The translations under genes were made by a program, and so were the position numbers. Under the pieces are notes generated by a model. That model saw only the letters and a program-made list of their open reading frames with translations, had not been told where the DNA came from and did not search any database. A stretch of DNA of 64,000 bases from NCBI GenBank assembly GCA_951406725.2, contig OX597817.1, forward strand, positions 133,920,001 through 133,984,000. The letters run 5' to 3'. The stretch comes from Octopus vulgaris. Lineage: Eukaryota. This document shows, in pieces, positions 2,323-51,348 of the stretch (positions within the stretch are counted from its first letter, which is position 1; each line of letters opens with the position of its first letter).

Positions 2323-2613
2323 GACATAGATATAGATAGATAGAGAGAGAGAGAGAGACATATGTTTATATATATGTTTATATAATAGAAATATTAAAAT
2401 AACTAAGTCTCTCTAAAAGAGAACAGCGGCAGCGTTCCCGGAAAATAATAGTTATCGCCATACTAATATGGCATTCTTATAAAAATAAGAGAAAAGCTGT
2501 CCGCTTATTAGCTCCATGAGGCCATCGCCTTAAGTTAGCTATTTGATACACAAACTGTATCCATATAACCTTCGAACAAGGGAGGTCAGTCGCTCCACAC
2601 TACTTGACCGGCA

Positions 2614-2655
2614 GCTACAGACGCGTTTCGGGGTATTGCCCCTTTTCAATGCAGC
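2614..2655 (-). ncRNA. Type I hammerhead ribozyme, U3:A8 variant
   Basis: Reverse complement: GCUGCA UUGAAAA GGGG-CAAUA-CCCC GAAA CGC GUC UGUAGC. Confidence 0.8.
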
Positions 2656-2920
2656 GTAGCCAGCCAGTAGGTGTCGCTTCCGACAATCTCTGTTCGATGG
2701 TTTTATTTACCTAGTTTCGGTGGAATACATCCACTTGTTTTCAATAATAGAAATATTAAAATAACTAAGTCTCTCTAAAAGAGAACAGCGGCAGCGTTCC
2801 CGGAAAATAATAGTTATCGCCATACTAATATGGCATTCTTATAAAAATAAGAAAAAAGAAACTAGGTAAATAAAACCATCGAACAGAGATTGTCGGAAGC
2901 GACACCTACTGGCTGGCTAC

Positions 2921-2962
2921 GCTGCATTGAAAAGGGGCAATACCCCGAAACGCGTCTGTAGC
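2921..2962 (+). ncRNA. Type I hammerhead ribozyme, U3:A8 variant; predicted cleavage after C2956
   Basis: Stem I gctgca/tgtagc extended by tggctggc/gccggtca; core TTGAAAA; stem II gggg/cccc; GAAA; palindromic stem III acgcgt; GUC triplet. Confidence 0.8.
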
Positions 2963-3282
2963 TGCCGGTCAAGTAGTGTGGAGCGACTGACCTCCCTTGT
3001 TCGAAGGTTATATGGATACAGTTTGTGTATCAAATAGCTAACTTAAGGCGATGGCCTCATGGAGCTAATAAGCGGACAGCTTTTTTCTTATTTTTATAAG
3101 AATGCCATATTAGTATGGCGATAACTATTATTTTCCGGGAACGCTGCCGCTGTTCTCTTTTAGAGAGACTTAGTTATTTTAATATTTCTATTATTGAAAA
3201 CAAGTGGATGTATTCCACCGAAACTAGGTAAATAAAACCATCGAACAGAGATTGTCGGAAGCGACACCTACTGGCTGGCTAC

Positions 3283-3324
3283 GCTGCATTGAAAAGGGGC
3301 AATACCCCGAAACGCGTCTGTAGC
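3283..3324 (+). ncRNA. Type I hammerhead ribozyme, U3:A8 variant
   Basis: Identical to 2921-2962, one 362-bp period downstream. Confidence 0.8.
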
Positions 3325-3499
3325 TGCCGGTCAAGTAGTGTGGAGCGACTGACCTCCCTTGTTCGAAGGTTATATGGATACAGTTTGTGTATCAAATAGC
3401 TAACTTAAGGCGATGGCCTCATGGAGCTAATAAGCGGACAGCTTTTTTCTTATTTTTATAAGAATGCCATATTAGTATGGCGATAACTATTATTTTATG

Positions 3500-3935: not shown

Positions 3936-4020
3936 GGCTGCTTGCTGAAGAGTCTAGCCTTGGCAGATAAATTATATTCATCTGCTAAAAAAAAGACGAA
4001 ACTGCAGTACAAGATGAGCC
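3936..4020 (+). ncRNA. Type I hammerhead ribozyme with long stem II; predicted cleavage after A4009
   Basis: cttg CTGAAGA gtct...(tggcagat/atctgcta)...agac GAAA ctgcag ta caag; outer ggct/agcc pairing; palindromic actgcagt. Confidence 0.8.
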
Positions 4021-18077: not shown

Positions 18078-19360
18078 TCAGTAGTTATATTTTTATAACG
18101 TGCTTTCACTTCCCTACCGAGCGCAGTTCTGTGTGGCTTGGGTGTGTGCTGTGGTTTGTTGTGATGCTCGTATGGTTACTGTACTGAAAGTGTTCTGCGT
18201 AGGATGAATGCAGTGCCTAGTACTGCAATTTTGTGTATGTTATATATATTTGTTAGTCCTGGTATTTTTTTTTTAATGTATTTGTCTGAATATTTTTTTT
18301 TTATCATACCTATCATACTATGGTAGGAATTGTTTCCGTTTTTAGATTCCACATTGGAGTTACCTCTATTCCCAGGTCTTTGCCTTTTGAAAGTTTCTCC
18401 ATTTCTTTTAGAGAAACGTTGTCATCTGCTGGTATTGATACATCAATTAGAAAGCATTTTTTCTTCATGATCTCTGACAACTATATCTGGTCTGTTGGCC
18501 TTAATTTCTCTATCTGTGTGTATTGGCATATCCCAGTGTATGGTTGCTTTCTCGTTTTCTGTGACCTTTTCTGGCGGGTGCCTATACCATCTTTTTTCTG
18601 TTGTTATTCCATAGTGTTTGCATAGCTTCCAGTGTAGGTCCCAACTCTGTCGTGTCTGTGAATATATTCCTTCTTAGCCAGGACTGGGCAGCCAGAGATA
18701 AAATGATTTATTGTTTCTTCTCCATCTCCACAGATTCTGCATTTACTTGTTATGTTTCTTTTCATTATATGTTTTTGGTAATTTCTGGTGGGGAGACTTT
18801 GGTTTTGTGCTGCAATTAAAAATCCCTCTGTCTCTGCTTTGAGTCCTGAGCTTCTCAACCATTGCTTAGATTTTTCTCTGTCTATTTCTTTTGCGTTTAG
18901 TTTAGCCCAGTATTTGCCATGAGGGTGCTTTTCTTGCCATCGTTTTATAATGGTCTGTTGCTGTTCTAGTTTTAGTTTTGATTTCATATGTTTTATAACT
19001 TTTGTTGTTGTTTCTTCTTCTTCTTCATATTTGTTAGGTAGTATGACTTCTTGTTTGTATTTGTCAGCTTCCTTAAATACTGAAAACAGTATTTTGTTTT
19101 GCTCGTGTTTTGTGGCTATTTCTATCAGTTTTTCTTGCTTCTGAAGTAGGTATTTTTGCAGTCTTATGATGGTTATTGTATAATAGTTTTCCAGCTGTAT
19201 AAGGCTTCTACCACCTTCTATACGTTGCATATATAGCCTTTCTATGTCAGATTTTGGCTGGTGCATCCTAGATCCTGTCATGATTTTTCTTGTTTTCCTG
19301 TCTATTTTGGTTAGTTCATTTAGTGTCCAGTTAAAGACTGTTGTACTTAAGGATATTGTC
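18078..19360 (-). mobile_element. 5'-truncated Dong/R4-like retrotransposon (thumb, CCHC, RLE)
   Basis: ORF 18604-19281: RLYMQRIEGGRSL...WLRSSGLKAETEG...CRICGDGEETINHFISGC; between (TTA)n tracts. Confidence 0.9.
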
Positions 19361-19448
<88 letters not shown>

Positions 19449-19452
<4 letters not shown>

Positions 19453-22400
19453 TAGTTTAAATTGTATAGTGTGCTTTCACTTCACTACCGAGCGCAGCTC
19501 TGTGTGTCTTGGGTATGTGCTGTGATTTGTTGTGATGATCTGATGGTTATTATATGGAAAGTATTCTGCGTAGGATGTGTGCAGTGCCTAGTAGTGCAAT
19601 TTTCTGTATGTTATATGTGTTTGTAAGTCCTGGTGTTTTTGTTATGTATTTGTCTGAATATTTTTTTATCATGCCTAATGCACCTACTATGAAAGGAATT
19701 GTTTCTGTTCTTAGATTCCACATTGTGGTTACCTCTATTTCCAGGTCTTTGTATTTTGAAAGTTTCTCAATTTCTTTTAGAGACACGTTGTCATCTGCCG
19801 GTATTGATACATAAATTAGAAAGCATTTCTTTTCTTCATGATCTCTGACAACTATATCTGGTCTGTTGGCCTTAATTTCTCTATCTGTGTGTATTGGCAC
19901 ATCCTAGAGTATGGTTGCTTTCTCGTTTTCTGTGACCTTTTCTGGTGTGTGCCTATACCATCTTTTTTCTGTTGTTATTCCATAATGTTGGCATAGTTTC
20001 CAGTGTATGTAGATTCCAACTCTGTCATGTCTGTGAATATATTCCTTCTTAGCCAGGACTGGTCAGCCAGAGATTAAATGATTTATTGTTTTTTCTCCAT
20101 CTCCACATATTCTGCAGTTACTTGTTTTATTTCTTTTCATTACATGTTTTTGGTAATTTCTGGTGGGGGGGGCTTTGGTCTTGTGCTGCAATTAAAAATC
20201 CCTCTGTTTCTGCTTTGAGTCCTGAGCTTCTCAACCATTGCTGGGATTTTTCTTTGTCTATTTCTATTGCATTTAGTTTAGTCCAGTATTTAACATGAGG
20301 GGGCTTTTCTGGCCATCGTTTTATCATGGTTCTTTGCTGTTCTAGTTTTACTTTGGATTTCCATTGTTTTATAGCTTTTGTTGTTTCTTCATCTTCTTCT
20401 TCTTCTTCATATTTGTTAGGTGGTATGATTTCTTGTTTGTATTTGTCAGCTTCCTTAAATACTGAGAACAGTTTTTTGTTTTGCTCGTGTTTTGCCGCTA
20501 TTTGTATCATTTTCCCTTCCTTCTGATGTAGATATTCTTGCAGTCCTATGGTGGTTATTTTATTGTAGTTTTCCAGCTGTATAAGGCCTCTACCACCTTC
20601 TATACGTTGTATATATAGTCTTTCTATGTCAGATTTTGGGTGATGCATCCTAGATCCTGTTATTATTTTTCGTGTTTTCCTATCTATTTTGGTCAGTTCA
20701 TTTAGTGTCCAGTTAAGGATATTGTAGCTGTAACTTATAACTGGGACAGCTAAAGTGTTAATACCTATTATCTTGTTTTTAGCATTGAGCTGTTTTTAGT
20801 ATTGATCTAACTCGTCTATAATATTCTTTTTTTTATTTTCTCTTTCATTTGTATGTGTTGTGTCTTATCTAGTTCATGGATTCGTAAGTATGTGCAAGTT
20901 TGGCTTTGGTCTAATTCTTTTATTTCATTGGTTTTATCTAGTGTGATGTTGTTACTCTTAACTAGTTTTCCTCTTTTCATGGTTACTTTGGCGCATTTTT
21001 CTAATCCAAATTTCATATCTATTTCTTTGGTAAATCCATGCCAGCTGTTTGTCATTTGCAGCGTATAGTTTTAGGTCATCCATATATAAAATGTGGCTGA
21101 TCTTGCCGTAACATTTATATCCGCATCCAGTACTATTTAGCATATCAGATAGAGGTGACAGTGCCAAGCAGAAAAGGAGTGGAGAGAGCGTGTCTCCCTG
21201 GAATATTCCTCTTCTAATGGGGATGGCTTTGGTTTTTATGAGTCCCTCTTTTGTTTGGAGCTGTAGCACTGTTTGCCATTTATTCATAGAGTGTCCTATG
21301 AATTTTATGATTGTTGGTACTACTTTGTTAATGGCTAGTGTTTCGAGGATCCATGTGTGGGGGATGCTATCAAACGCCTTTTTGTAGTCGATCCAGACCA
21401 TACTGAGGCCTTTCCTCTTTCTGTGGCTGTCTTAAGTTATGACTTTATTAATCATTAGTTGATCTTTACAGCCATATGAGCGTTTGCGGCATCCTTTCTG
21501 CTCTTCTGGGAACAGGTTGTTTTCGTCCAGGTGCTTGTTCAACCTTTGCGATATCACTGCAGTAAATGCCATGTACATTGTAGGGAGACAGGTTATTGGT
21601 CTGTAGTTTCTGGTTTTGCTGTCTCATTTGATTTGAGAATTAAGATAATTTTCCCCTTCGTGAGCCATTCAGGCATTGTCTCTGGCTCTGCCAGTATGTT
21701 GTTAAAATTTTCAGCCAGCTTTTTGTGCATTCATGTTAGATATTTCAACCAGAAGTTGGGGATCTTGTCATGCGCAGGTTCCTTCCAGTTGCTTAGTCTT
21801 TGCAGTGCCTGGGTGACCGCTTCAGTTGTTATGGGGGTCCAAAGTTGCTCAGATGCTGAGTTTGTTGTTTTAATACTCCTTTTTTTGGTTGTTCGTTCGC
21901 CGACCATATTTCTCTCCAGAATTCTTCCACTTCTTCTGCCGTTGGTGCTGCAGTGATTTCTATTTTATTTTTGCCAAGTTCTTGGTAGAACTTTTTGTGG
22001 CTGGAGTTGAACTTTTTGTTTTGTTCAAAGAAGAACTGGCGTTTCTCGTACCGGCGGATCCTTTGTGCTTTGGCAAGGATATCTTGCTTTAGCTTTTCTT
22101 TTATCTCAGGTAAATCTTTTTCTGTGATGTTGTATTTGCGGAGTATTTTTGTTTTCTTTTTGTTGCTCAGTAGCGTTGATTGTCTACTGATTTCATTAAG
22201 AATCGACAGATCTTTTTTCATTTTTTGTATTTTGTTTTGGATGTTATTTATCCACAGGATTTGTTTGGGTGGTGGTACTCCTGTTTGGACGGGTTTGAGT
22301 GAGTATCCAGCTTCTTTTGTGACTACAGTGGCTGCTGCGTATACTAAGACATTTAGCTCAGTGATATCGCTTTTTGTTTCAGTGGCTATTAGTTCCGTGA

Positions 22401-26954: not shown

Positions 26955-28339
26955 TAAAAAAGGAAATGAAGAAAATGCTGACAAATAATTGAAGTAATTT
27001 AAGTAATTTAATTAGGTGAAAGTTCTTTTTACCGGTTGCGCATTTGTTATGCTTATCAAAATATAAAAGAGAGATTAGAGTCTGTCTCTTATATGTGAAA
27101 AAAAGAGGCTCCAGAGTTGTTTGGGATTTGCTTGGTTTCGCGCCTAAAATTTTGATTGGTCATTATGAAGGGGTCACGTGAATGTTTGAATGGAAGTTGG
27201 TGTTGGGGTAAGAAAAAGGCTCCAGAGAAGTTAAAATTTGGCTAGTGTCCCGCCTAAAATTTCTTATTGGCCATAATAAAGAGGTCACGTGAATGTTTAG
27301 AATTTTCGAAAATAGTGTTGTTGAAAATTCTTATTGTTCAGGCTGGTCAGTAGACGTCATGTGGATATTTTAAATAGCTTTTTAGCGCGTAGTTAGGGAG
27401 TGTATTTTCCGCTTGACTGAATAAGTAAGTTCGTTTAGAACAGGGAGAGCTGTATGTATGTATGTGTGTGCGCGCGTGCGCGCGTGTGTGTGTTTATATG
27501 TATGTTGGGGCGCGCGCGCGTGTATATATGTGTGTGTGTGTGGGTAAAATTTTCAATATTTATAGTTCTGCTGGCCTTGTGCCTGTATCGGGAAGCAACG
27601 TATTTGTGTGAAGTCAATATTTACAGCCATTTCCAAAAATAGTGTTGGATGTTTTGCACCCGTATTCAATTATGTGTATGTGTGGAACCATATATTTGTG
27701 TGTGTCATGGTGTTAATATCTGGGTAAAGGTGTGTGTAGGGTGTGTGCAGGTGTAAGTGTGTTTGTTGTGGGTTCGTGTTAGGGGCATGTGTTTAGAAGT
27801 GGTCTGTATTTATTAATAAGGTGGGATTCCATGGTTATTCGCTGGGTATGAGTGGCATTGTCTTTAAATTTGTAGAGGAGAAAGATTCTAAAATTGGGAT
27901 GGAGTTGTGCGGCACAGGTATCAATATGTGCACTAAATGCTATTTTTCTATATTCCTGTATTTTTATTTGGGATCTGTGGACAGTCATGCGTTGGCGGAG
28001 GCTATTTTTTGTTTGGCCTATGTAGTGTTCATTACAGCCCGAGCAAGTTAAGACATATACTAGGTTTTCTGATGCGCATGTGAAGTTGTGTTTTACTGTG
28101 AAACGTTGTCCTTGTTTAAAAAGGAATTCCGGACCTTCTATTAGGTTGATGCATATACCACAGTTGGGTCTATTGCATTTGTTTACTGTGGGTTTAGTTG
28201 TTGTGGTTGGCAGTACTTTGGCATTTGTTAGGATGGTTTTCAATGATTTGGGTTGCCTTTTGCTCTTTATGATTTCGTGTGTTAGGAGGATTTGGTTCAT
28301 TCTATGGTCCTTTTGTAATACAGGAATGTTCTGGAGTAC
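26955..28339 (-). mobile_element. 5'-truncated Penelope-like element (PLE) with 3' pLTR region ending in (TA)n
   Basis: GIY-YIG ORF, then 3' UTR with a duplicated ~90-bp CCAAT/E-box module (27101-27302) and a decayed hammerhead (~27024-27070). Confidence 0.8.
27779..28300 (-). CDS. Penelope-like element GIY-YIG endonuclease domain (partial)
   Basis: CNRPNCGIC...FTCASENLVYVLTCSGCNEHYIGQT...RMTVHR...HID...ESHLINKYRPLLN. Confidence 0.9.
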   Translation of the reverse strand: MNQILLTHEIIKSKRQPKSLKTILTNAKVLPTTTTKPTVNKCNRPNCGICINLIEGPEFLFKQGQRFTVKHNFTCASENLVYVLTCSGCNEHYIGQTKNSLRQRMTVHRSQIKIQEYRKIAFSAHIDTCAAQLHPNFRIFLLYKFKDNATHTQRITMESHLINKYRPLLNTCP

Positions 28340-28427
28340 CTCTGCAATCGATAGAAAGTCTCAGCTAACTAGAAGGTAAGCTGCCGGCTGACTGTATATC
28401 TAGGCAGTAGTTCGTATCACAGAACCA

Positions 28428-28496
<69 letters not shown>

Positions 28497-28595: not shown

Positions 28596-29634
28596 GTTCG
28601 TGCATACATATATTCTGCTTCGACCACATTCTTGTTTTTTTCTGGATCGGCATAAATGCATAGATACACATTTCATTCCACATTAGAGTATGTTCATGTA
28701 TGTATCTATGATTTGGTACATACCTGTATGATGTGTGTGTGTGTGTTTGTGTATGCACTGGATTCTATGTTTAGAATTAGGTTATACAGCAGGTATTGTC
28801 TACTCTACTGACGTTGAAGTGTAGTTCGATTTAACATCGGTCAAGTAAGAACTGTTGCGAACATTAAAGAATAAATCGATATCGGAATATTGGTAATTCC
28901 AGTGTTTGTTCCTGAAATATCTCCCTTTATAATAAGACTGCAGCTATATATCACTCGCATAAGAAAGCTGCTTATAGACTTTACCCACAATTCCTTTTCA
29001 TTCTTCTGCAATATTAAAGTACTTGGATATAATCAGTTGTAGTTTAATTGTTCTTTTAATACTCTCTACATGAAGTGTCTGAAATTCTTTCGACAGAGCA
29101 GAGCTTATGTCAAAGCAGAAAAACGTGATTTTATAAATATAACCAAAATGTCGATGTTACTGCCTGCATAAAAAAAAAACGTGATCTTAGACCATGATGG
29201 CGGGATTCGGTATTTTTTTTTTCTTTGGAAATCTTTAGGAAATGTCCAGTAATTTTTATTCGCCAAATTTTTCAAGTTTGTCTAAATTTAAACTCTGCAA
29301 TCGATAGAAAGTCTCAGCTAACTAGGAGGTAAGCTGCCGGCTGACTGTATATCTAGGCAGTAGTTCGTATCACAGAACCAATACTGTACTATGCCAGTGA
29401 TCAACTTAACAGCTCCTCATTGCTTTTGTCCATTTGACTTAAGATGACGAATTAGCAAGGTGATTAGAGGGTTGGGTAAAACAGAAGGCTTTGCAATATG
29501 TATTCCGACGATTTGAGTTCAACAACTTGCGACACCAAATTTGACCTCCAACCCTTAAATATACGATCAGTTTCTCTCAGAATCGATTTGTGGCCAAGAA
29601 AGAAGTTATTCCTCGCAGCCTCACTAATACTTAC

Positions 29635-39734: not shown

Positions 39735-39800
<66 letters not shown>

Positions 39801-39963
39801 GTTATCGCCATACTAATATGGCATTCTTATAAAAATAAGAATAAAGCTGTCCACTTATTAGCTCCATGAGGCCATCGCCTTAAGTTAGCTATTTGATACA
39901 CAAACTGTATCCATATAACCTTCGAACAAGGGAAGTCAGTCGCTCCACACTACTTGACCGGCA

Positions 39964-40005
39964 GCTACAGACGCGTTTCGGGGTATTGCCCCTTTTCAAT
40001 GCAGC
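39964..40005 (-). ncRNA. Type I hammerhead ribozyme, U3:A8 variant
   Basis: Same as 2614-2655. Confidence 0.8.
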
Positions 40006-40325
40006 GTAGCCAGCCAGTAGGTGTCGCTTCCGACAATCTCTGTTCGATGGTTTTATTTACCTAGTTTCGGTGGAATACATCCACTTGTTTTCAATAATAG
40101 AAATATTAAAATTACTAAGTCTCTCTAAAAGAGAACAGCGGCAGCGTTCCCGGAAAATAATAGTTATCGCCATACTAATATGGCATTCTTATAAAAATAA
40201 GAATAAAGCTGTCCACTTATTAGCTCCATGAGGCCATCGCCTTAAGTTAGCTATTTGATACACAAACTGTATCCATATAACCTTCGAACAAGGGAGGTCA
40301 GTCGCTCCACACTACTTGACCGGCA

Positions 40326-40367
40326 GCTACAGACGCGTTTCGGGGTATTGCCCCTTTTCAATGCAGC
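40326..40367 (-). ncRNA. Type I hammerhead ribozyme, U3:A8 variant
   Basis: Same as 2614-2655. Confidence 0.8.
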
Positions 40368-40687
40368 GTAGCCAGCCAGTAGGTGTCGCTTCCGACAATC
40401 TCTGTTCGATGGTTTTATTTACCTAGTTTCGGTGGAATACATCCACTTGTTTTCAATAATAGAAATATTAAAATTACTAAGTCTCTCTAAAAGAGAACAG
40501 CGGCAGCGTTCCCGGAAAATAATAGTTATCGCCATACTAATATGGCATTCTTATAAAAATAAGAATAAAGCTGTCCACTTATTAGCTCCATGAGGCCATC
40601 GCCTTAAGTTAGCTATTTGATACACAAACTGTATCTATATAACCTTCGAACAAGGGAGGTCAGTCGCCCCACACTACTTGACCGGCA

Positions 40688-40729
40688 GCTACAGACGCGT
40701 TTCGGGGTATTGCCCCTTTTCAATGCAGC
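40688..40729 (-). ncRNA. Type I hammerhead ribozyme, U3:A8 variant
   Basis: Same as 2614-2655. Confidence 0.8.
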
Positions 40730-41210
40730 GTAGCCAGCCAGTAGGTGTCGCTTCCGACAATCTCTGTTCGATGGTTTTATTTACCTAGTTTCGGTGGAAT
40801 ACATCCACTTGTTTTCAATAATAGAAATATTAAAATTACTAGTCTCTCTAAAAGAGAACAGCGGCAGCGTTCCCGGAAAATAATAGTTATCGCCATACTA
40901 ATATGGCATTCTTATAAAAATAAGAATAAAGCTGTCCACTTATTAGCTCCATGAGGCCATCGCCTTAAGTTAGCTATTTGATACACAAACTGTATCCATA
41001 TAACCTTCGAACAAGTAGCTGCCGGTCAAGTAGTGTGGAGCGACTGACCTCCCTTGTTCGAAGGTTAAATGGATACAGTTTGTGTATCAAATAGCTAACT
41101 TAAGGCGATATGATATATATTTATTCTTATTTTTATAAGAATGCCATATTAGTATGGCGATAACTATTATTTTCCGGGAACTCCCAGAGAGACTTTAATT
41201 TTAATATTTC

Positions 41211-41246
<36 letters not shown>

Positions 41247-43756: not shown

Positions 43757-46700
43757 GTGCTTGTGTTTATCATTCAGAATTCTACATTCGGATGTTTAAT
43801 AAATTAGTGGATTCACAATCCTCCCCTAGTATGTATTTTCCATCACCTTTATTGTGTGCACACGTGTGCTCTTTTGCGTGATTGCTACGTATTATTTATT
43901 ATAGAATCAACAATTATTTTCGATTATATGCCTATGAAAACACCATTTCTTGTGATCCCAGGAAGCACATTCTATCGATCCCTCGACTATTAGCTAATCT
44001 CGCCCCGTCTCAATCCTGCTCGCCTTTTCCACCTCTCTCTTCCTTTAATGTTTTGAATCCCCAAATTATTCTCCAGTCTGTATAAGTATCCGTCATACGT
44101 AATTGAGGCTGTATGGAATTTAAATTAAACATAATACATAGATGGCTATTGAATAAGAGATGAATGTTTTACTGAAAGAAGCTACAAAAGCAATGAAAGA
44201 TCTTTTGGTAAACTTAGAGTTTAATTGAAACTTGACGACGGCTACAATCTATTTCTGTTAATCAATATTTAAGAACAAGATTCTGCATTGATATCAAGGA
44301 TCATTATAGGGACTAATCAAAAGTTGTTATCGATTTTCACGTTGTAGTGTCAAAAGGGCGGCTATCTTCTTCCAATCATTTGAAGCATACCATTTTTAGG
44401 TGTCGTATATAATGTTACAAAAGGAAAGCGATAACAATCACATCTGATTACATCAGGAAGAAAATTATTGAACGGTTGATCGTCGAATCGGCAGAGCGAC
44501 GGACAATGCACCGTGTGGTATTTCTTAAATTTTTTTTTATATTCTGGATTGAAATGTCACCAAGCATCGAATTTATTTAGACTAGGAATATAATTACTGC
44601 GCAAAATTTTTCCATAATATCTTGTCTTCTCAGCATTGTTGATATGTCCAGCACACCTTAGGACTTGCATTCAAGTTCAGATCTTCACCGGTGTAATGGT
44701 ACTTGCGAAAGCTATGGGCAACAGCTCTTTGTTTAGATCCAGCAAGGAAAAAAGAAAAAAAAGCTCTATCGAATACAATATCTACTACATATGTGAGAGA
44801 TTCTGTCTGTGAGCGTGTTTGTGGAGTTGTTAGGTAACCCCTCCTTCATCGTTTTATCGATTTTGAAGAAACTCATGTCTGGAAACCTCATGGCATACTC
44901 AGATTGTTGAAAAAACCATAATAATAGGACCTCTGGAAGGGATCCTTATATATATCTAATATATTTCAACAACCAAGAAAAATGGCCTATTTATTTTCCT
45001 AAATCATTTGGTATAAATCAAATTGAGTGTGGTTATTTCTTAGTATTTGAACTGTTAAAAATATTTTCCCAAATAACAAGTATATAGTATTTTCCTAAAC
45101 AGTAGATCCAATTATTTTGGTTAGTGACTTATTCATGAATATACCAACACTAGCGCCGCTGAGGGTAATATTCTCTAGGAACGCACAAAAGTCCTTTTGA
45201 GAGTTATTTACTTTGAATTGTTATTAACTCATATCTTACTAACCTGTTATTACGTAACATGCTTCATGATTTTAGTGTACATACCTTATTAGTATTTCCT
45301 CGTAAGTTCTATATACTGTGGGGACGCATTAAAGCCCTTCAAGGGTCTACTTTTTTTGAATTCTTACAGTCAGGTAACTAATTTCATGTTATGATATAAC
45401 TGACTTCACAATTTGGGTATTCATAACTTACTGAGAATTCCTAAAAACGAGATCCTGTGTAAGACATTTCGTTATTCTCTGTAAATGCAGAGAAACCGTT
45501 TTAAGGGCAACATACTTTGTATCGTTGTTATTGGCTTAGCAAAACAATTATGAGAACGGAGCCAGGGGGTAAACCCCACTTTCCCAGGAACTACCATAGA
45601 TATTGGTTTAAAATTTTGGCGCAGGGGTAGGAATTTTTATATCGAATTCAGTGCTCAACTGGTACTTATTTTATCGACCCGAAAAGGCTGAAAGGCAAAG
45701 TCAAACTCAGAACTTAAAGGCGGACGAAATGCCGCTAAGCATTTTTCCTGATGTACTAAAAATATTGCCAGCTTGACCGAACCCGGAACCATGTGGTTGG
45801 GAAGCAAGCTTCTTACCACACAGCCATCGCTGTGCCTATGTGGATATTCAAGCAATGCGTTAGTGCATACTAGATGGGTTGGATGTGGTGCTGACGAAAG
45901 AGCGATAATTCTTGAAATATGTATATACACCCATTACCTATTTTCTCTATCGCATTGTTTACATATACGTATTCCTATGCGAAACGTAACTTTCAGTGCT
46001 GGTTCCAAATTTTATAGCACATCAATAGAGATAAGCTAAAAAAATATATATATTAGTGGTTGTAGTCAGTGACGTGGTTGGTGAGATACACTTTGGTAAT
46101 TTCCCAGATGATTGATTTCATGAATGTTATTGATAATGTTTGTGAGTGTAGTAACTATACCATACGAGGTGTTCGAAAAATGCTACAATGTGTATCGTAG
46201 TCGAGTTTATGGGAGGGTCCTTGAGAATTCATCAGAGATCGTAAGCTCTGAGCTTGCTTATGTAGCGGATCTGGGATCTTTAATTTATGACTTATTTATA
46301 TGTAGAGAGAGCTTAGTACTAGAAGGACCCTTGAGATAAGATGATAAGCGAAAATGTAAATGTGTTTCCAAATATTTTGAGATAATTGTCGGATTTCAGG
46401 AAATTCTTAAGAGCTTTGGGAATTAATGAGCTATCAAGAATCTCCAATGTTGTGGGCTTTTCTTAAAAGTTTCAGATTAATTATGTGGAAAACATCGCAC
46501 TGAGCCATTAACATAAAATGCATTTTTTATAGAATATATTTCACTTATGAATTCAAAGTATATTTATTCTTCAATCATTGCTTTGAACACTGTAGACATT
46601 ACTATAATGCGTCTGCACCAAGTTTTGAAACAGGAACGGTTCAAAACAAGCCATTTCCATACTTGGCATAGGATTTTCTTAAATGCTCTAAATAGAACAT

Positions 46701-48724: not shown

Positions 48725-49565
48725 GTATGTATATATATATATATATAAGATCCAGGTTTCCAGGTGTAGGAAGAAGGTTTAGCTTACAGCAATCTGTAGT
48801 GAATAAAAAAAAAATACTTTCAGAAACAATAATGGTTTATTGAGATGGAAATTTCCAGATTGTTTTTCTTTTATCGAAGAACGATGAGCTGGAACGAAGT
48901 TCTTTTTATATTCCTCGGTAGGCATCCAGAGTTGCCGAGTGTGCGAAAAAGAATACAAGGGTTACGAAATGGAGTGTGGGAAATCCAGGCTACATATGCT
49001 TCATAGCGAGTGGACCTACAGAAGTGGTAAGATCCATGTGAGGTGTATACCGTCGGCTACTCTTCAGGCCAAGGATTCTGACTGAAATCTTTGCGTCAAC
49101 ACGTACTTCCTTCCGACAATGTAGTCTTTAATCTAATTCAGATATTCTTGGCCCGCGGTATACACCTCACTTGGATTTTACCACTTTTGAGGTTCCACTT
49201 GCTAGCTTCCTAGGGCTAAATAGCGGTGAGTGATTCCCTTTACGGGACTGTCACGTTAAGTTGACAGTATACAACCGCTTTATCGTTCTACCACCGCTCA
49301 TATCTCTCTGAGATATTTAGAAATTTAATATTTCTAATTTCGGTGATCAGTGAATAAACTTCACTGAAAATATATATGTTTACGAAGGCTTTGCAAGCAT
49401 CTTCAGCTAGCAGGCCATGCTACTCTAAATTGTCACGTGCATCGTCAGAGTGTTGGTTTTTCTGAGTTGGCTTTGTGATATTGTGAGTACAGAACATTGT
49501 TATTGTCGAAAGTATTGTTATTGTTGAATTTTTGAAAATTGTTTCATTGCTACCCACTGTTGAGT

Positions 49566-50828: not shown

Positions 50829-51039
50829 ATAGAACGACTACAAACTGTATAAAGGAATTGTAAAATGAATCTGCGAGCTTGGGGGGATCGTAAGCCATTC
50901 CATTTTTCCATTACACATAACTCGTCTCATATTCATTATTTGTTATATGTACCCTAAATTTTGTATTGTTTGTATGTTATTGTAATATCCATTCTATATT
51001 CAGGCTACATGCCTATAATAAAGAGAAAGGCCATCATAC

Positions 51040-51085
51040 TCCAGACTGATGATGAGCAAGACTCAGAAACATGCATGTCTCTGGA
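51040..51085 (+). ncRNA. Canonical type I hammerhead ribozyme; predicted cleavage after C51079
   Basis: tccaga CTGATGA tgag-caaga-ctca GAAA catgcatg tc tctgga; palindromic stem III acatgcatgt. Confidence 0.88.
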
Positions 51086-51348
51086 TGCAGGCCTAGCTGT
51101 TGGGGGTGCTTGTCTCCCCTTCGTAACCATAAGAAAACAGGAAATGTGTCAAAGCCGACAGGAAGCGTCGATGCTTCCTAGGGCTAAATAGCGGTGTGGT
51201 GATTCCCTTTACGGGACTGTCACGTTAAGTTGACAGTATACAACCGCTTTATATATATATACACATATATATATATATATATATACATAAATACATACAT
51301 ATATATACATAAATATATATACATAAATACATACATATATATACATAA

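Follow-up and report, generated by a model that had tools for sequence, protein, structure and literature searches.

A U3-A8 hammerhead core in a young 362-nt non-LTR retrozyme of Octopus vulgaris and its C3-G8 sister family

The window, i.e., the whole 64,000-nt stretch of Octopus vulgaris DNA analysed here, contains two insertions (2382-3496 and 39795-41216) of a repeat, hereinafter family A, which is built of 362-nt units with a G+C content of 41.7%, each carrying one type I hammerhead with a U3-A8 core (Table 1). The longest ATG-initiated frame in the unit spans 38 amino acids, so that the repeat is non-coding, and simple patterns for Pol III A and B boxes found none in the 362-nt unit. 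Compared to shuffled sequences, the unit is strongly folded in both linear and circular form (z scores of -7.5 and -7.0, respectively). Both insertions consist of two arms that diverge from a centre, with both 3' ends lying in (TA)n at unit phases 3131-3134 and 3194. The presence of two loci with matching (TA)n ends, together with further contigs showing the same end (in the two large sequencing runs, 34 and 14 contigs, respectively, pass into (AT)n at phase 3194), corresponds to the dispersal that defines metazoan non-LTR retrozymes. The unit length also falls within the 150-450 bp of the head-to-tail units of such retrozymes, and the G+C content lies under their limit of 45-50%. We classify family A as a young, non-coding non-LTR retrozyme that is dispersed in (TA)n and takes the tandem and inverted form typical of Penelope elements. 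At one of the two loci, the 5' end of the inverted arm at 41015 falls 1-2 nt 3' of the predicted cut; the probability of such a coincidence for one of four 5' ends is 0.054, and the position at most hints at a footprint of a ribozyme-cut template. Homologous copies of a second family, B, are found at 49 and 51 kb, the longer of which, at 51021, directly follows the apparent 3' end of another element. Positions 18604-21431 on the minus strand are occupied by a disrupted LINE-type element whose RVT_1 and zf-RVT matches fall into different frames. The SINEs and microsatellites of the window would fit an octopus genome.

Table 1. Hammerhead motifs, repeat copies and Penelope-related sequences in the window.
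Feature	Position	Strand	Remarks
Hammerhead core positions 3-9, UUGAAAA	2927..2933	+	U3 = 2927, A8 = 2932
Type I hammerhead, family A copy 1	2921..2962	+	Predicted cut between 2956 (C17) and 2957
Hammerhead, family A copy 2	3283..3324	+	Core 3289
Hammerhead, family A copy 3	2614..2655	-	Core 2649
Three hammerheads of locus 2	39964-40005, 40326-40367, 40688-40729	-	Cores 39999, 40361, 40723
Predicted long imperfect rod (extended helix I), ~145 nt	2870..3013	+	Hammerhead at tip; from folding
Locus 1, plus arm	2858..3496	+	1.8 head-to-tail 362-nt units; 3' end, unit phase 3134, joined to (TA)n
Locus 1, inverted arm	2382..2858	-	3' end, unit phase 3194, joined to (TA)n; 60-nt tail beyond other end
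Locus 2, tandem arm	39795..41015	-	3.4 head-to-tail units (period 362, 99% match); 3' end, phase 3131, joined to (TA)n
Locus 2, inverted arm	41015..41216	+	5' end at unit phase 2958; 3' end, phase 3194, joined to (TA)n; internal deletions
3' fragment of Penelope-like element	27779..28360	-	193-aa frame, C-X4-C-X2-C then GIY-YIG endonuclease; PF01541, E 3.5e-07
Hammerhead-like motif, U3/A8 and A13C	27030..27059	-	~720 nt after GIY-YIG stop, ~73 nt before (TA)n
Family B fragment	49205..49428	+	3' part, tail and 5' arm of rod, ending just before core
Family B copy, homologous to family A	51021..51250	+	3' end matches phase 3134, joined to (TA)n
Family B hammerhead, canonical C3-G8 core CUGAUGA (51046)	51040..51085	+	10-nt helix III palindrome; predicted cut after 51079

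The hammerhead of family A comprises a 6-bp helix I, the core and a 4-bp helix II composed exclusively of G-C pairs and capped by the loop CAAUA, followed on the 3' side of helix II by GAA, the palindrome ACGCGU and C17. U4, G5 and A6, A9, G12, A13 and A14, the A15.1-U16.1 pair and H17 are all present, and positions 3 and 8 form a Watson-Crick U-A pair instead of C-G. Helices I and II have predicted pairing probabilities of 0.94 and 0.98, respectively. The 50 nt around the core are identical in all six hammerheads, and a strict descriptor with U3/A8 retrieves six matches in the window but none in any of 100 locally shuffled windows. Thus, the description given in the earlier note, namely, a hammerhead with a U3/A8 core at 2927-2933, present in six complete copies with the other core letters intact, is borne out, as is its premise that positions 3 and 8 pair in the active hammerhead (PMC3884650).

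Natural covariation from C3-G8 to U3-A8 was first reported in 2011, in several hammerheads, and U3-A8 was reported to be active in vitro (Perreault et al., PMC3088659); in 2014 a dedicated U3-A8 descriptor recovered approximately 1,300 Penelope-linked cases in Schistosoma mansoni (Cervera and de la Pena, PMC4209133). However, in one type III hammerhead that was scanned for all pairwise changes, rescue at positions 3 and 8 was obtained only by C3G/G8C (PMC9901934). The earlier characterization of U3-A8 as a tolerated natural swap accordingly stands as far as "natural" is concerned, whereas "tolerated" appears too strong; by analogy with the scanned ribozyme, the U3-A8 core of family A is probably slower than C3-G8. 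The expectation that a search for CUGANGA would miss the family holds by construction, but a U3-A8 descriptor was already in use in 2014, and Rfam misses the canonical sister family too: in release 15, neither family A nor family B yields a hammerhead-model match at E values up to 10, so that the swap is not the sole cause of invisibility. The Rfam Hammerhead_1 model matches the window just once, at 3939-4015 (plus strand); this match scores 26.5 bits against a gathering score of 34, includes a very long loop 2 and is probably due to chance. Another hammerhead-like match, at 45887-45931 (plus strand), combines the core CUGACGA and a helix II of 5 bp with a helix III that is rich in A and T and forms an imperfect palindrome; it is present in a single copy, and its fold does not rise above shuffles (z -1.1). 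No description of family A or of a U3-A8 retrozyme was found in the literature covered, which comprised articles without their supplements and few subscription papers, so that an earlier mention is possible.

The six family A units in the window differ from each other at 0-5 of 235 positions. Because of this near identity, the six copies represent one event rather than six covariations, the swap having been inherited once. The argument for selection that the earlier note had built on the six copies therefore fails, although its conclusion, selection on the fold, is recovered through the comparison with the C3-G8 sister family presented below.

Copies of family A were also traced in sequencing runs, where 4066 and 1035 contig pieces could be aligned to the unit in the two large runs, and the head-to-tail joint of 362-nt units is present in all four runs examined. 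Between 91% and 100% of the unit words occur in each of 20 of the 23 listed runs, from 12 studies and under 7 organism labels, none of which is recorded as RNA, so that these matches have no bearing on transcription. In the two large runs, no core position shows a variant at a depth of 1% or more. Only 26 of the 362 positions in the unit vary, however, and the lack of core variants has a probability of 0.37 by chance, so that the invariance of the core within family A is not significant. Pair-breaking variants account for 3 of the 18 shared between the runs, compared to 6.7 expected (p = 0.03), and for 8 of the 28 in the union, compared to 10.2 expected (p = 0.21), with p values of 0.08 and 0.12 for the structure-keeping bias in single runs; the variants weakly favour kept pairs. 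One diverged contig, approximately 85% like family A (over 96 letters, 14 are replaced and 3 gaps occur), has U3 and A8 without a listed change, along with a rod pair changed from G-C to A-U and a palindrome shorter by two letters, these changes being credited to the contig by equal depth. Its sequence suggests that constraint went on after the U3-A8 swap. Upstream of unit position 3154, a different sequence is present in 27 contigs of each large run, which suggests another subfamily whose tail region is altered.

Contig depth dips upstream of the core, a feature given no weight because contig depth is not equivalent to copy number. Among the contig ends listed, beyond which there are 125 more, there is no pile-up of loose ends at the cut site. 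In one run, the 362-nt unit is closed by a contig of 392 nt, which is compatible with a circle or with tandem DNA alike, since contigs cannot separate the two. No A-to-G change, as would be left by editing, is listed at the A-rich core in two small runs, a sample too thin to count.

Outside the ribozyme, families A and B align with a score of 89 compared to 44 +/- 6 for shuffles, none of which scored as high in 500 trials (96 matches and 66 mismatches, ~59% identity; nhmmer E 4.9e-06). The tail of the fragment at 49205-49428 is likewise related to family A, with 0 of 500 shuffles scoring as high, and both end positions are common to the two families. The 5' and 3' arms of family B pair with each other at -54.7 kcal/mol, far beyond the -27 +/- 3.6 kcal/mol of shuffles (0 of 500), so that the rod is a shared feature of A and B. 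Within the ribozyme, four of the six pairs of helix I and two of the four pairs of helix II differ between the families, yet all 10 still pair. The ten other core letters are kept, as are UAC before and U after helix I and the loop letters CAAnA. The UAC, U and CAAnA letters may be the counterpart of the loop 1-loop 2 contact of Schistosoma. By contrast, helix III is built on different palindromes, ACGCGU (6 nt) in A versus 10 nt in B, and has three pairs in B versus one in A; judging from its sequence, the hammerhead of family B could possibly be cleaved as a monomer. In a crude neutral simulation at 59% identity, all the kept features were retained in 1 of 400,000 runs; in the same simulation, when positions 3 and 8 are both altered, chance alone leaves them paired in 37% of cases. 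Overall, selection on the hammerhead fold across the A/B lineage is well supported by these comparisons, which present the 3-8 swap as one real compensated event.

We read C3-G8 as the ancestral state because it is the general consensus, as is also apparent in metagenome contigs. A pattern that allowed all four combinations at positions 3 and 8, with the letters of helices II and III fixed and hence with a biased sample, gave at least 94 matches in at least 88 loci; among the matches listed, 81 have C3/G8, 7 have C3/A8, 6 have U3/G8 and none has U3/A8. For the 64 listed matches that also include helix I and H17, the count of C3/G8 is 62 (48 of the 50 distinct ones). None of the listed metagenome matches is a relative of family A (best nhmmer E 0.07). 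These contigs also contain type I hammerheads of canonical form, dozens of which share the ACGCGU palindrome; several of these are arranged as inverted pairs 100-350 nt apart, and they look like Penelope-type motifs from eukaryotic DNA. In viral contigs, the U3/A8 pattern has three matches, none of which includes helices I and III.

The fragment of a Penelope-like element at 27-28 kb is followed by a hammerhead-like motif in which UUGAUAA (27059-27053, minus strand) is combined with a 4-bp helix II, GCA in place of GAA and the palindrome ACCGGU. A U3/A8-type core in a decayed motif at ~27024-27070 (minus strand) had been pointed out in the earlier note, and it is indeed present beyond chance, with 1 of 3000 shuffles of the 822-nt region matching a relaxed descriptor that was, however, written after the motif had been seen. 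Helix I is weak, and the region shows no hammerhead fold (z -0.87). From its sequence and location, the motif is likely to be a hammerhead remnant at the expected place and may represent an independent case of U3-A8 or a product of decay. Its proposed role as a sign of the partner lineage is not upheld, given the A13C change and flanks that lack homology to A or B: when families A and B were compared with the one Penelope 3' region in the window, 36 of 200, 258 of 500 and 498 of 500 shuffles scored as high. The autonomous partner of family A was not found, the fragment at 27-28 kb being the only Penelope fragment examined. Upstream of the U3/A8 remnant, the Penelope 3' region contains a 95-nt direct duplication (27099-27303, 79% identical). 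Furthermore, the sequence just before the GIY-YIG frame (28360-28450, minus strand) recurs approximately 960 nt away, at 29300-29400, as if part of the element or an adjoining exon-like piece had been duplicated.

In family A, helix III is a single pair capped by a palindromic tetraloop, an arrangement with which amphibian retrozymes undergo cleavage in dimeric form (PMC7229834), and the ACGCGU duplex is worth -7.5 kcal/mol. In the monomer model, helix III has a probability of 0.000. In the genomic dimer, the double hammerhead lies above the optimum by +6.1 kcal/mol with the Turner 2004 parameters and by +1.7 kcal/mol with Turner 1999, with a cross-pair probability of 0.000, and only in the folding of a truncated 900-nt trimer does it become the optimum. 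According to these folding models, the double hammerhead would be feasible but is not favoured.

Taken together, we consider it likely that the U3-A8 core of this young 362-nt retrozyme derives, by a single event, from the C3-G8 core seen in a related family, and that it still allows a slow self-cleavage that depends on dimers. In multimeric transcripts, the ACGCGU palindromes of two units would pair, giving rise to a double hammerhead that would cut after C17 (2956/2957) and release 362-nt units. These would be circularised by a host ligase, as in other retrozymes (PMC7229834), and a Penelope-like element would provide the reverse transcriptase and the GIY-YIG endonuclease that copy the units into (TA)n sites. 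The U3-A8 pair would then act as a tolerated, probably slower, isosteric replacement at positions 3 and 8, with no new chemistry involved. Alternatively, the ribozyme of family A might be crippled or dead, with U3-A8 and the one-pair helix III being signs of decay that hitch-hikes on read-through copying by the Penelope machinery without cleavage. Several observations agree with this possibility: U3-A8 does not stand out as a rescue in the pairwise scan (PMC9901934), cleavage by Penelope-type hammerheads is often weak in vitro (PMC4209133), the spread of Naiad elements does not require canonical hammerheads (PMC8557442), and, in family A itself, the core invariance is not significant and helix III does not form in the monomer model. 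Nevertheless, a dead ribozyme appears unlikely, given that the helices, other core letters and loop letters are kept relative to family B via compensated changes, that the diverged relative of A keeps U3/A8 and the palindrome, and that one 5' end is located at the cut.

Another scenario is that slowing itself was selected, whereby U3-A8 and the dimer-only helix III would lower cleavage, longer-than-unit templates and intact circles would persist and family A would amplify. Indeed, A differs from B in two features that would both lower activity, the 3-8 pair and a helix III of one versus three pairs, and is a near-identical, many-piece family. However, the absence of U3/A8 among the 94 metagenome matches listed indicates that the swap is no common solution, and we regard selected slowing as improbable. 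The same considerable doubt attaches to an extension of this scenario, in which slowing explains why A out-amplified its canonical sister and the family-specific palindromes serve as self-recognition codes. Finally, the repeat could be a pseudo-LTR that has lost much of its 5' part and belongs to a Penelope-like element which is still autonomous and carries a U3-A8 hammerhead, such an element possibly being of the lineage represented at 27-28 kb. The inverted arms, the tail and the (TA)n targets are all hallmarks of Penelope elements (PMC8557442), Xenopus retrozymes have been related to pLTRs (bioRxiv 10.64898/2026.07.22.740005), and the motif at 27059 also has U3/A8. By contrast, the exact head-to-tail 362-mers in all four runs, the lack of any frame over 38 amino acids and the shuffle-level scores of A and B against the Penelope 3' region make such an origin very unlikely.

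Family A adds one more natural case to a swap that was already known. The coexistence of C3-G8 and U3-A8 versions of one retrozyme in one genome offers a comparison for the cost of the core pair swap in a natural context, which bears on whether the ribozymes of retrozymes have been tuned towards speed or towards restraint. If slowing was indeed selected, the two families would form a naturally matched pair for the question of whether weaker self-cleavage favours retrozyme spread. In surveys, descriptors limited to CUGANGA, or Rfam models, undercount such families.

Among the known systems, the Penelope hammerheads of Schistosoma mansoni share with family A the 3-8 swap and a Penelope-linked type I ribozyme (PMC4209133). 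As described in that report, the Schistosoma motifs are minimal and mostly single, with a helix II of 7-8 bp, a helix I of 4-5 bp and an extra base between positions 9 and 10.1. Assignment of family A to the minimal Penelope hammerheads is ruled out by its 4-bp helix II, 6-bp helix I and lack of the extra base. Unlike the Schistosoma cases, family A has the canonical architecture, is organized in tandem units and is accompanied by a C3-G8 sister family. The U3-A8 hammerheads of Perreault et al. (2011; PMC3088659) have the same swap and, in the section of that report considered here, are not tied to an animal tandem retroelement. The insertions of family A resemble Neptune- and Nematis-type Penelope elements with a C-terminal GIY-YIG domain in the tandem and inverted 5'-truncated arms, the tail at one end only, the microsatellite targets and the hammerhead near the 3' end, but differ from them in that no protein is encoded and the tail is ~60 nt rather than 30-40 nt long (Craig et al., 2021; PMC8557442).

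The metazoan non-LTR retrozymes (Cervera and de la Pena, 2020; PMC7229834), which include mussel units of 350-390 bp and axolotl units of 330 and 350 bp, are tandem non-coding units of a few hundred bases with a G+C content under 45% and strong self-pairing, each with one type I hammerhead with a 6-bp helix I and a 4-bp helix II, as in family A. The resemblance to the axolotl HHR_Amex1 extends to helix III, which in both is a single pair capped by a palindromic tetraloop. Family A departs from the metazoan retrozymes described there in its U3-A8 core. A 2026 preprint derives the metazoan non-LTR retrozymes from Penelope pseudo-LTRs (10.64898/2026.07.22.740005).
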